From the NCBI GenBank assembly GCA_016217925.1, contig JACRFK010000003.1, positions 8,364 to 72,363 on the forward strand: 64,000 bases of DNA, given 5' to 3'. Under the pieces are notes generated by a model. The model ran no database searches and was not told the origin of the DNA. It saw only the letters and a program-made list of their open reading frames with translations. Origin of the DNA: Candidatus Kaiserbacteria bacterium. GTDB taxonomy: Bacteria > Patescibacteriota > Minisyncoccia > Phycocordibacterales > UBA2100. A program made the translations under genes and the position numbers. Shown piece by piece: positions 46,516 to 46,598 of this stretch (its first letter is position 1; every line of letters starts with the position of its first letter).

Positions 46516-46598
46516 GACCCCGTTAGAAGCTTCGGAAATTGTCTTTCAATAACGAGATTTATCATGCATACTCGAGTGTATTATGGCTTCTAACGGGG
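46516..46598. repeat. Second copy of the CCCCGTTAGAAG-armed hairpin element (55-nt loop); the right arm begins at the ahcY ATG
   Basis: Left arm 46516-46529, right arm 46586-46598; ahcY ATG at 46583-46585. Confidence 0.45.

Follow-up and report, generated by a model that had tools for sequence, protein, structure and literature searches.

Two ends of a miniature transposable element very probably form the hairpin across the ahcY start codon of a Candidatus Kaiserbacteria bacterium

Why does a long inverted repeat lie across the start codon of ahcY, the gene for S-adenosylhomocysteine hydrolase, in a Candidatus Kaiserbacteria genome? We examined a 64,000-nucleotide stretch of that genome, hereafter the window. 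An earlier note had described a palindromic hairpin with arms at 46516-46530 and 46586-46598 that might gate translation of ahcY. The repeat and its loop are present, but the arms extend differently: 14 perfect pairs join ACCCCGTTAGAAGC (46517-46530) to GCTTCTAACGGGGT (46586-46599) across 55 nt, and the stem is neither 13 nor 15 bp because G46516 faces G46600 and is unpaired. The ATG at 46583-46585 does lie directly 5′ of the right arm, which encodes codons 2 to 5 (ASNG). Computational folding, suggested in the same note as a check, supports the hairpin given both arms in one RNA (-36.6 kcal/mol, z = -2.6); in the minimum-energy structure of that RNA, AUG 46583 is base-paired. With up to two mismatches, the 13-mer occurs 5 times in the window against 1.5 expected (0 of 100 shuffles reach 5), and its exact 10-mer core occurs six times, every one within an inverted pair. 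A scan of one genome per species returned at least 119 loci where about 4 were expected, and together the shuffles and the scan rule out a chance palindrome.

The flanks of the repeat have the form of an insertion. The ahcY element is 81 bp long, has a 13-bp terminal inverted repeat, CCCCGTTAGARRN, and is flanked by a 4-bp TGGA target duplication. Reading along the plus strand, the native -10 box TATAAT (46499..46504) stands 8 nt 5′ of the original start codon, an ATG at 46513-46515 that now opens a uORF (46513..46593) of 26 codons. This uORF is out of frame with ahcY, begins MDPVRSF and ends at a TAA (46591-46593) within the right arm. The left copy of TGGA (46514..46517) is followed by the left terminal inverted repeat CCCCGTTAGAAGC (46518..46530), which is the family consensus over 121 distinct listed copies, by a 55-nt interior (46531..46585), by the right repeat GCTTCTAACGGGG (46586..46598), which reads A-S-N-G in the ahcY frame, and by the right copy of TGGA (46599..46602). 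From the ATG inside the element the plus-strand ahcY reading frame runs 46583..47854 (423 aa). The publicly annotated start (418 aa) is an in-frame GTG at 46598..46600, composed of the last G of the element and the TG of the duplication.

Relatives supply the empty site. Where AhcY is 98% identical and the element is missing, the sequence reads ...TATACT-N8-ATGGAATAC with a single TGGA. Empty alleles comprise L120 and L121 (98% identical protein), L213 and L214, all with one TGGA, and the empty site is ATGGAATACGAC, encoding MEYD. Across the element-free relatives L120, L122, L123, L213 and L215, TATACT lies 7-9 nt before an ATG or GTG. This comparison shows that the 81-bp element landed in the TGGA that overlaps the ahcY start codon (A-TGGA-G, target in the middle) and that TGGA was duplicated thereby. 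The hairpin therefore sits at the start codon because the insertion hit a TGGA overlapping ATG-GA. Its position is no pointer to an evolved regulator of ahcY, since most Kaiserbacteria AhcY genes lack the element, 97-98% identical ones included. Of the 120 closest AhcY homologues listed, about 116 have a MEYDIK-like start without element-encoded residues. The protein P0001, 100% identical to the window AhcY, is 418 aa long with the N-terminus MEYDIK, and the N-terminus MASNGV or MMASNGV is found also in P0012, P0083 and P0120. As with SAH riboswitches and other cis-regulatory ahcY leaders, the ahcY start and the region just 5′ of it could fold into a structured RNA, but here there is no Rfam match, most orthologues lack the structure and the arms recur at unrelated genes. 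A SAH riboswitch or other known RNA family was accordingly rejected, as only tRNAs passed the gathering threshold and nothing credible appeared at E ≤ 10 in 46400-46700.

The same arms occur elsewhere in the window. The earlier note had reported a copy with identical arms upstream of glpX; the copy is there, but its arms differ from those at ahcY, with T-A replacing C-G at position 13, a compensated change. This second copy (28222..28289) reads TTGA + CCCCGTTAGAAGT ... ACTTCTAACGGGG + TTGA, and its 60-bp element (28226-28285; arms 28225-28238 / 28273-28286, 34 nt between) was inserted in the glpX -35 box. Empty sites, ccccTTGAcgctacc, are found in L129, L130, L131 and L134, where GlpX is 93-96% identical to that of the window. 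The duplicated TTGA regenerated the -35 box in a promoter-like plus-strand arrangement (28286..28324) of TTGACG (28286-28291), N16, TACCCT (28308-28313), N8 and ATG 28322; the pair falls below the strict-scan threshold, and TTGAC...TAC(G/C)CT is conserved upstream of the ATG in relatives. As this copy is upstream of the -35 box, it lies outside the glpX mRNA.

A search for further arm pairs, also proposed in the note, found two more in the window, though tabulating them revealed no common position relative to start codons. The third copy (16662..16774), whose arms the note had missed (16663-16676 / 16760-16773), reads CGCA + CCCCGTTAGAGGC ... CTCTCTAACGGGG + CGCA, and its 105-bp element (16666-16770) targeted a TGCG overlapping the start codon of def, the minus-strand gene for peptide deformylase. 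Deleting the element restores TATATT-N6-ATGCGAACTATT, which encodes MRTILP, the residues with which Def begins in nearly all relatives. L209 has the empty site and L216 a homologous filled allele. The publicly annotated def (16112..16717, minus strand, 201 aa) takes its first 17 codons, MNKKLSYEIRSGSASNG, from the element, and the gene-proximal arm lies 13-17 codons into the annotated ORF; the Def protein P0121 has 201 aa versus about 180 aa in relatives that start MRTILP. Beside this copy lies a fourth, variant one (16788..16846, 59 bp) with arms CCCCGTGAGATA / TATCTCACGGGG at 16788-16799 / 16835-16846. No target duplication can be recognised around it, L209 and L216 lack it, and it contains a TTGGAA that a promoter scan paired with the def -10 box TATATT.

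Together, the terminal inverted repeats, the target duplication with its empty sites, the small size without transposase coding and the multiple related copies make it highly probable that the ahcY hairpin consists of the two 13-bp ends, in inverted orientation, of a miniature non-autonomous transposable element (MITE). The note's view of a dispersed module, as opposed to a gene-specific accident, is borne out by the target-site duplications, the empty sites and hundreds of copies in other genomes. We considered whether the arms could instead be operators of a DNA-binding regulator, possibly a domesticated transposase, with a small regulon of ahcY, glpX and def. All three of these window copies do lie at promoters or gene starts, and arm sequence, beyond pairing, is conserved at orthologous loci. 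However, half-site spacing ranges from 3 to more than 85 nt, a quarter of listed copies lie within long ORFs of unrelated genes, target duplications flank copies that close relatives lack, and no candidate factor adjoins the copies in the element-bearing loci, which makes this explanation very improbable.

The wider family supports the transposon reading. Its ends have the form CCCCGTTAGA-R-R-N, and the terminal repeats are 13 bp long and perfect or near-perfect across 121 distinct listed copies. Copies measure 29-122 bp (59, 60, 81 and 105 bp in the window), a size distribution that, like the apparent conservation of the arms, is biased because the set was gathered with an exact-arm pattern and a 32-62 nt gap; among bystander copies free of this bias, 11 are perfect and some 20 slightly decayed. 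Flanks that repeat exactly (4/4) occur in 58 of 118 listed copies as compared to 1 of 118 in the control (P = 2e-20). The family target is G-TNNA-C with the four duplicated bases in the middle, and the consensus among the 118 listed copies is G-YNNR-C. The window holds 3-4 copies in 64 kb, and one Jorgensenbacteria MAG has five near-identical 80-bp copies (L008, L078). Interiors are similar between copies of one genome and unrelated between lineages. An ahcY-type interior forming a multi-copy subfamily was ruled out, as CCCCGTTAGAAGCTTCG was found at ahcY loci only (1.2 Mb).

The stem of the family is exactly 13 bp: positions 11-13 are variable yet complementary, and pairing is at background from position 14. 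That is the pattern expected of hairpin recognition, and with the very short-loop versions in L043 and L087 it could speak for a REP/REPIN-type element that a RAYT (HUH/Y1) transposase moves in the form of a single-stranded hairpin. Like REPs, the copies are short, abundant palindromes with structure-like stem covariation. REPs are extragenic and lack target duplications, whereas the present family duplicates its target, with 4-bp duplications of variable sequence as the rule, and is common in genes, a quarter of listed copies lying inside ORFs. To our knowledge, neither REP/RAYT nor IS200/IS605 systems make a target duplication. No conserved GTAG-type 5′ tetranucleotide is seen, and no RAYT-like ORF lies between arms in 1.2 Mb. 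We therefore rejected REP/REPIN-RAYT and regard it as a highly improbable origin. Integron attC sites were rejected as well. These have the order RYYYAAC ... GTTRRRY, with AAC/GTT innermost, and the GTTAGA at the 5′ side and TCTAAC at the 3′ side of the present elements are such boxes inside-out; the neighbours are housekeeping genes with no cassette context, and a 4-bp duplication is present.

Many copies of this MITE family are read as protein. Element length equals 2 mod 3 in 77 of 122 listed copies (63%, P = 2e-11), a length that, with the duplication added, is divisible by 3. Thirty of the 122 lie within long ORFs, every one in frame and free of stop codons (30/30), and both arms are stop-free in two frames, PVR...SNG and PLE...LTG. 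Frame-keeping length and stop-free arms mean that copies can persist in frame inside essential genes. In CarB and GlyRS, comparison with solved (PDB) homologues places a gap of 19-23 aa exactly at the element, and Pfam-confirmed host genes include SecA, DnaE, a Mur ligase, Sua5, PrmC and a GspG-type pseudopilin. The ahcY copy is not of this in-frame type, being 81+4 = 85 bp and at a start codon. These data also bear on an intron-like element that would be excised from RNA, the mRNA regaining ATGGAGTAC. As this idea predicts, the ancestral starts of ahcY and def are recovered precisely when the element and one duplication are taken out, but frame and stop codons need constraint only if the copies are translated, and the in-gene copies preserve the frame. 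Sizes of 59-105 nt are also far below that of self-splicing introns, and no ribozyme family was matched. We give this idea almost no credence.

The 13-bp end is common to Patescibacteria, Planctomycetota, Omnitrophota, Nitrospirota, Desulfobacterota and others, with phyla assigned via MAG binning. A scan of viral contigs gave 4 matches. Literature searches on the arm sequence returned unrelated papers only, no paper among the top matches combined MITEs with Patescibacteria or Planctomycetes, and a 2024 MITE review mentions neither group. Thus the family is apparently large, spread across many bacterial phyla and undescribed, and its members often lie within genes without breaking them.

What mobilizes these elements? 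The element-bearing loci, 1.2 Mb in all, yielded neither an autonomous copy nor a transposase. Candidate autonomous parents were discarded, as every arm pair with a separation of 0.3-4 kb in these loci proved to be a chance match with 1 mismatch around ordinary genes, and all-against-all clustering of 758 ORFs from the element-bearing loci yielded PilB/GspE, PilC/GspF and housekeeping genes but no transposase. The enzyme class is for this reason deduced from the elements themselves, whose ends, together with a palindromic target duplicated over a 4-bp stagger, point to mobilization in trans by a transposase of the DDE type. The piggyBac transposon makes a TTAA duplication and has the 13-bp terminal repeat CCCTAGAAAGATA, and the piggyBac/IS1380 superfamily is marked by a duplication of 4 bp (or 4-5 bp) and by ends that open with CC. 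The features of the present family, namely 13-bp ends CCC..TAGAA that open with CCCC, a four-base TNNA duplication and seamless-looking element-free alleles, would fit a piggyBac/IS1380-like enzyme, though as a resemblance only. The prokaryotic IS1380 family serves as the outgroup for piggyBac in one study (PMC10813416). The present family differs in that the central two target bases are free, and its ends resemble the piggyBac ends over a short stretch only, perhaps by chance.

We then considered how ahcY is expressed with a transposon on its start codon. Gene starts in this host appear to be of the leaderless type, lacking a Shine-Dalgarno (SD) sequence and having their -10 box 5-10 nt 5′ of the ATG: TANNNT precedes the candidate ATG by 5-10 nt in 20 of 48 long window ORFs (4.6% expected), and an SD-like motif is found in only 4 of the 48. 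Insertion would have displaced the native promoter and ATG by 85 bp, out of frame. Within the interior, TTTCAA (46544-46549), a 17-nt spacer, CATACT (46567-46572), a 10-nt spacer and ATG 46583-46585 form a candidate promoter and start. The arrangement TTTCAA-N17-(C/A)ATACT-N8-10-ATG, with its blocks and exact 17-nt spacing, is invariant in four diverged alleles. The match to the sigma-70 consensus is 8/12, and a strict sigma-70 scan of the three loci picked out a single pair, TTGGAA-17-TATATT at def, with none at ahcY or glpX, so our promoter statements rest on conservation and not on consensus score. Among 16 gene-start copies in other genomes that contain an interior in-frame ATG, 8 have a -10-like box 5-10 nt upstream of it, against 12% of control ATGs (P = 0.001). 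By reading the sequence we saw no -10-like box at leaderless distance from GTG 46598. The def copy in the window likewise lacks such a box at that distance from its interior ATG. On balance we lean, with somewhat better than even confidence, toward ahcY now being expressed mainly from the element-internal TTTCAA-N17-CATACT-N10 as a leaderless or near-leaderless mRNA starting at ATG 46583, which would give AhcY five extra residues. An mRNA from the internal promoter would be without the left arm and hence without the hairpin, and folding an RNA begun inside the element gave no significant structure.

The filled ahcY alleles are paraphyletic to the empty ones. The identity of the filled L124 is 0.92 with the empty L120 but 0.88 with the filled window allele, a pattern that calls for several precise losses, recombination or repeated gains. 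Among four diverged filled alleles (alignment A1), arms and duplication are invariant in 41/41 columns versus 24/49 interior columns. The invariant set includes the non-coding left arm plus 4 more bases, and every one of the four alleles still has the old start codon, ATG or GTG, with the native -10 box before it. Such invariance is unexpected of a dead insertion scar and counts against a plain-insertion account of the ahcY copy. An invariant -10 box, old start codon and pair of arms would fit a hairpin-bearing leader that is still made. RNA started at the upstream promoter that these alleles keep would include the complete hairpin, and AhcY translation from such RNA would depend on the leaderless uORF to open the stem and pass ribosomes on near its stop codon.

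It is possible, though we hold it doubtful, that on top of its transposon origin the hairpin has been exapted as the translational gate that the earlier note envisaged. The old upstream promoter would be active, the 14-bp stem and a small AUG-pairing helix would hide the start, and AhcY would be made only once the stem is opened, for example by ribosomes on the leaderless uORF that starts at the old ATG and ends beside the AhcY start. Beyond the folding result, with its paired AUG, and the invariance just described, in the window, L211 and L212 no more than 8 nt separate the uORF stop from a candidate AhcY start, at def the uORF ends 4 nt 5′ of the interior ATG, and without SD-type initiation ribosomes would need help of this kind to start at an AUG inside a long leader. 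However, in L124 there are 29 nt between the end of the uORF and the ATG, and L216 no longer has the old def ATG. A general rule that the uORF stops at the TAA of the arm was ruled out because uORF length varies between alleles. A gate is moreover dispensable in the many orthologues that lack the element, even those 97-98% identical; the same arms lie within coding regions and upstream of promoters, where gating is impossible; the conserved internal promoter would offer a hairpin-free route; and no Rfam family is matched. More speculatively still, copies on leaderless start codons may have been co-opted as portable expression modules, supplied across many phyla by a seamlessly excising transposon with a piggyBac/IS1380-like enzyme. 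Were this so, a module would comprise the internal promoter and start codon, the retained upstream promoter, the leaderless uORF and the gating 13-bp hairpin (AhcY, Def), and it would explain why both arms are invariant at the ahcY and def loci.

Among known systems, the Correia elements of Neisseria are bacterial MITEs with promoter activity and RNA hairpins (review PMC10969869). The present elements likewise are small, non-coding, carry terminal inverted repeats and a target duplication, lie near gene starts, may supply sigma-70-like promoters and have inverted repeats that form a hairpin if co-transcribed. Correia elements differ in having 26-bp repeats and a TA duplication and in occurring in Neisseria alone, with no sequence similarity to this family, whose 13-bp repeats and 4-bp G-TNNA-C duplication occur in many phyla. 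Promoter activity and RNase III cutting have been shown for Correia elements, whereas the promoter in the present family is predicted from sequence. Rickettsia palindromic elements (RPEs) are about 150 bp long and known from Rickettsia only, and we know of no clear target duplication made by them. One review describes them as selfish palindromes in frame inside housekeeping genes, translated as peptide loops (PMC10969869, citing Ogata et al.). The likeness is that copies stand in frame in unrelated housekeeping genes and are read as coding, the 85-bp ahcY insertion excepted. The present family differs from RPEs in its clear 4-bp duplication, its 3n+2 length rule, its taxa and its element size of 29-105 bp.

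These results mean that insertions of the element alter where genes start in Candidate Phyla Radiation genomes. In the public annotation AhcY begins at a GTG made by the insertion junction and Def at an ATG inside an element, and the element peptides (xPVR...SNGx) in SecA, DnaE, CarB, GlyRS and pilin leaders could pass for insertions specific to one lineage. Should the enzyme come to light and excision prove seamless, a mobile element that has ends of 13 bp and duplicates 4 bp would be of interest as a tool. The ahcY locus shows an organism with apparently leaderless genes tolerating a transposon on a start codon, the element bringing or evolving a -10 box and an in-frame ATG, and the element ends, stop-free in two frames, are part of the same tolerance. 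That these phyla have one 13-bp end in common points to a transposase in wide circulation and to gene exchange between bacteria of groundwater and sediment.

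The inverted repeat described in the earlier note at the ahcY start is real, as is its 55-nt gap, but its extent is different: ACCCCGTTAGAAGC (46517-46530) is perfectly complementary to GCTTCTAACGGGGT (46586-46599), giving a 14-bp stem, and G46516 lies outside it, unpaired. The ATG at 46583 does sit directly 5′ of the right arm, with ahcY codons 2-5 (ASNG) inside the arm. The idea of a dispersed module was also borne out when more pairs were sought. All six window occurrences of the core, CCCCGTTAGA, belong to inverted pairs: one at ahcY, one at 28226-28285 upstream of glpX and one at 16666-16770, where def starts. 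A fourth copy (59 bp, 16788-16846) is bounded by variant arms with compensated changes, CCCCGTGAGATA / TATCTCACGGGG, and other genomes hold additional pairs. With up to two mismatches allowed, the 13-mer is present five times in the window against 1.5 expected, and none of 100 shuffles reached five. Two further repeats in the window are unrelated to this family, a perfect 17-bp inverted repeat (49969-49985 / 50074-50090, 88 nt between arms) and a perfect 18-bp palindrome, ACAAAACGCCCCCGCCTA / TAGGCGGGGGCGTTTTGT (13765-13800). Near-identical palindromes (TCTCAYRTTCTTAAGAATGTGAGA-like) at 44602-44629 and 44915-44938 flank a 96-aa winged-helix-like ORF (44638-44928) and could be auto-regulatory operators.

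Immediately outside the CCCC...GGGG ends are 4-bp direct repeats: TGGA at ahcY, TTGA at glpX and CGCA at def. Deleting the element and one repeat yields TATAAT-N8-ATGGAGTACGAC, encoding MEYD, at ahcY; TATATT-N6-ATGCGAACTATT, encoding MRTILP, at def (minus strand); and an intact TTGACG -35 box at glpX. In Kaiserbacteria, AhcY nearly always begins with MEYDIK and Def with MRTILP. These predicted ancestral sites are borne out by empty alleles in relatives. A metagenome contig (L120, L121; AhcY 98% identical) reads ...TAGTATACTtctcgcgtATGGAATACGAC, with a single TGGA and no element. A second empty ahcY allele, GTGGAATAC, is that of L213/L214. Over 400 nt its upstream flank shares 87% identity with the flank of L211, which carries the element, and in the ~50 nt that lead up to the insertion site the two sequences agree at almost every base. 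The empty glpX site, ccccTTGAcgctacc, is found at four GlpX loci (93-96% identical), and a locus with a 90% identical Def has the empty def site, TATAGTtttcctgATGAGGACA. Together, the duplications, the restored ancestral sites and the empty relatives demonstrate a small insertion with a 4-bp target duplication, whose terminal inverted repeats form the arms of the hairpin. In one relative (L215, 345-593), a 23S_rRNA_IVP family ORF lies between a pfkB-like gene and ahcY.

Scanning one genome per species for CCCCGTTAGAR-N{32,62}-YTCTAACGGGG, and thus with exact arms and a restricted gap range, we collected at least 119 loci, compared with about 4 expected under equal base frequencies. Among the matches listed, the carrier records are mostly MAGs; one is a single-cell genome, and some contigs measure 0.5-1.7 Mb. 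The carriers listed belong to many Patescibacteria lineages, Pirellulales, Phycisphaerae, Sedimentisphaerales, Omnitrophota, Nitrospirota, Desulfobacterota, KSB1, Elusimicrobiota and two Gammaproteobacteria, a breadth that rests on MAG binning. Four contigs classified as viral in IMG/VR (L125-L128) also have exact copies. An exact 4/4 flanking repeat is present in 58 of the 118 copies among the matches listed, whereas the next four bases outward match in 1/118 (P = 2e-20), and in the same set the target consensus deduced from the flanks, G|YNNR|C, is palindromic and most often G|TNNA|C. The stem of these matches, preset by the search pattern at positions 1-10, is exactly 13 bp long: positions 11-13 vary in sequence yet stay complementary, with Watson-Crick pairs in 98%, 90% and 82% of cases and each of the four pair types represented at position 13, and at position 14 just 23% are paired. 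The mix of variation and complementarity at positions 11-13 may stem from co-varying transposase sites, from template-switch correction of quasi-palindromes or from hairpin recognition.

Element interiors are unrelated between lineages and near-identical inside one genome, as in the five copies of 80 bp on L008 and L078; some versions have loops of just 3-7 nt. Of the copies found outside the pattern selection, 11 have perfect arms and about 20 have one to three mismatches in them, so the population mixes young and decaying members. A copy at ATGGA (L083, 5804-5925) has both outermost bases altered and compensated (TCCCG...CGGGA). Tandem copies with 3-4 nt between them (L008, 2942-3105; L114, 1301-1547) and clusters on single contigs (L078, 7-223; L087, 6516-6844) are arranged as if each junction (G-TNNA-C) recreated a target site.

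From the perfect short ends, the variable duplication of fixed length and the palindromic target, we infer the signature of a DDE transposase dimer, which would make 4-bp staggered cuts. The ends of piggyBac are 13 bp long and start CCC..TAGAA, and its four-base duplication is T..A. The element shares these features, and the patchy distribution of its filled and empty ahcY alleles may be a further resemblance; for instance, the filled L124 is closer to the empty L120 than to the filled window allele. The prokaryotic relatives of piggyBac are the IS1380 family (PMC10813416), and the resemblance extends to them. We treat this resemblance as a lead and not as a claim of membership, since no enzyme was found in the element-bearing loci. 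Within these loci, transposase genes are absent between arms spaced 0.3-4 kb apart, and the ORFs that recur beside the copies are not transposase-like.

The length of the element is itself informative. Among the matches listed, 77/122 copies have a length of 2 mod 3 (P = 2e-11), making element plus duplication a multiple of three. This rule is obeyed by all 30 listed copies within ORFs that continue for 50 codons or more in both directions, which read x-P-V-R...S-N-G-(V/A) in 24 cases and P-L-E...L-T-G in 6; these are the two frames in which neither arm has stop codons. Confirmed hosts include SecA (L028, 1304-1368), DNA polymerase III alpha (L051, 3442-3509), a Mur ligase (L117, 1616-1683), Sua5, PrmC and an AIR-synthase-like protein, while CarB (L116, 1770-1837) and GlyRS (L091, 4373-4446), aligned with solved structures, show a 19-23 residue gap precisely at the element. 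One site, G|TTTA|C, recurs in pilin and pseudopilin genes, where it spells the Gly-Phe-Thr codons of the prepilin cleavage motif; insertion duplicates GFT and thereby adds the element's residues to the leader peptide. Copies at this motif (L008, 3026-3105 and 6121-6200; L069, 6932-6990; L092, 3651-3715; L097, 6292-6356) come from different phyla and have unrelated interiors, and because of this recurrent site PilB/GspE and PilC/GspF are the commonest neighbours. About twenty of the listed copies lie at the 5′ ends of long ORFs, with the right arm encoding the first residues, several of them precisely at A|TGAA, A|TGAG or A|TGGA.

Gene starts in the window organism look leaderless-type: TANNNT lies 5-10 nt before a candidate ATG in 20/48 long window ORFs against 4.6% expected (P = 8e-15), and an SD-like motif precedes just 4/48 (15% expected). 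At ahcY, insertion moved the native -10 box and ATG 85 bp from the coding sequence and shifted the frame, so that a 26-codon uORF now runs from the old ATG to TAA 46591 within the right arm. We compared four filled ahcY alleles, those of the window, L124 (= L034), L211 and L212, inferring promoters, start codons and transcripts solely from sequence conservation. Their ahcY genes are 78-88% identical in DNA, and their elements are homologous, in the same orientation and found at the ahcY locus only. All four contain TTTCAA, exactly 17 nt, (C/A)ATACT, 8-10 nt and ATG, and the second box resembles the lineage's own TATACT boxes. A promoter within the element would therefore yield a leaderless or near-leaderless mRNA from ATG 46583 and an AhcY whose first codon is that ATG, and RNA beginning there has no significant structure. 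In other genomes, a -10-like box lies 5-10 nt upstream in 8/16 gene-start copies with an in-frame interior ATG, compared with 12% of control ATGs (P = 0.001). The public AhcY start, the junction GTG at 46598-46600 (P0001, 418 aa), has no -10-like box at that distance.

None of the four filled alleles has lost the native -10 box or the old start codon (ATG or GTG). Transcripts from the native promoter would form the hairpin suspected of gating translation, which folds computationally at -36.6 kcal/mol (z = -2.6) with the AUG paired. At most 8 nt separate the end of the uORF from a candidate AhcY start in three alleles (window, L211, L212); in L124 the ATG follows 29 nt after the uORF. It is somewhat more likely that the promoter predicted within the element carries most ahcY expression. 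All 41 columns of arms and duplications are invariant among the four alleles, including the non-coding left arm and four further bases, against 24/49 interior columns (P about 2e-13 at the interior rate). A passive scar does not account for this conservation, and gating may still operate at ahcY.

The other window copies differ in position. The glpX copy, found in the window genome only, lies in the -35 hexamer with the hairpin upstream of the promoter; TTGAC is regenerated because C follows the duplicated TTGA on both sides, and the predicted promoter, TTGACG-N16-TACCCT-N8-ATG, is conserved and intact despite the element. A different long palindrome, gcttccagcttcgagctgcgag...ctcgcagctcgaagctg, absent from the window, occupies the greA-glpX spacer in L129-L131 and L143. 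At def, L216 is filled by a homologous element whose ends are identical and whose interior has diverged, and it has lost the old ATG; the Def proteins P0130 (from L216) and P0132 have N-termini reading ...ASNGV-KTILP. In the window copy at def, the uORF stops 4 nt short of the interior ATG. The public Def start (16715-16717) is an ATG inside the element (P0121, 201 aa vs about 180 aa in relatives). Public start calls at ahcY and def are inconsistent. The fourth copy has no recognisable target duplication, is absent in L209 and L216, and contains TTGGAA, which a promoter scan paired with the def -10 box.

The element does not fit the definitions of REP/RAYT, attC or riboswitches, comparison with Rfam gave no family match, and a literature search with the arm sequence found no paper containing it. 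Its carrier phyla are not mentioned in a 2024 review of prokaryotic MITEs. Like Correia-type MITEs, it is predicted to donate a promoter and to form a hairpin in transcripts, and like Rickettsia palindromic elements it resides in-frame within housekeeping genes (PMC10969869); as far as can be judged, it is homologous to neither. The family appears to be undescribed and is unusually widespread, and it has both a codon-neutral design and a tendency to occupy leaderless start codons and pilin leaders.
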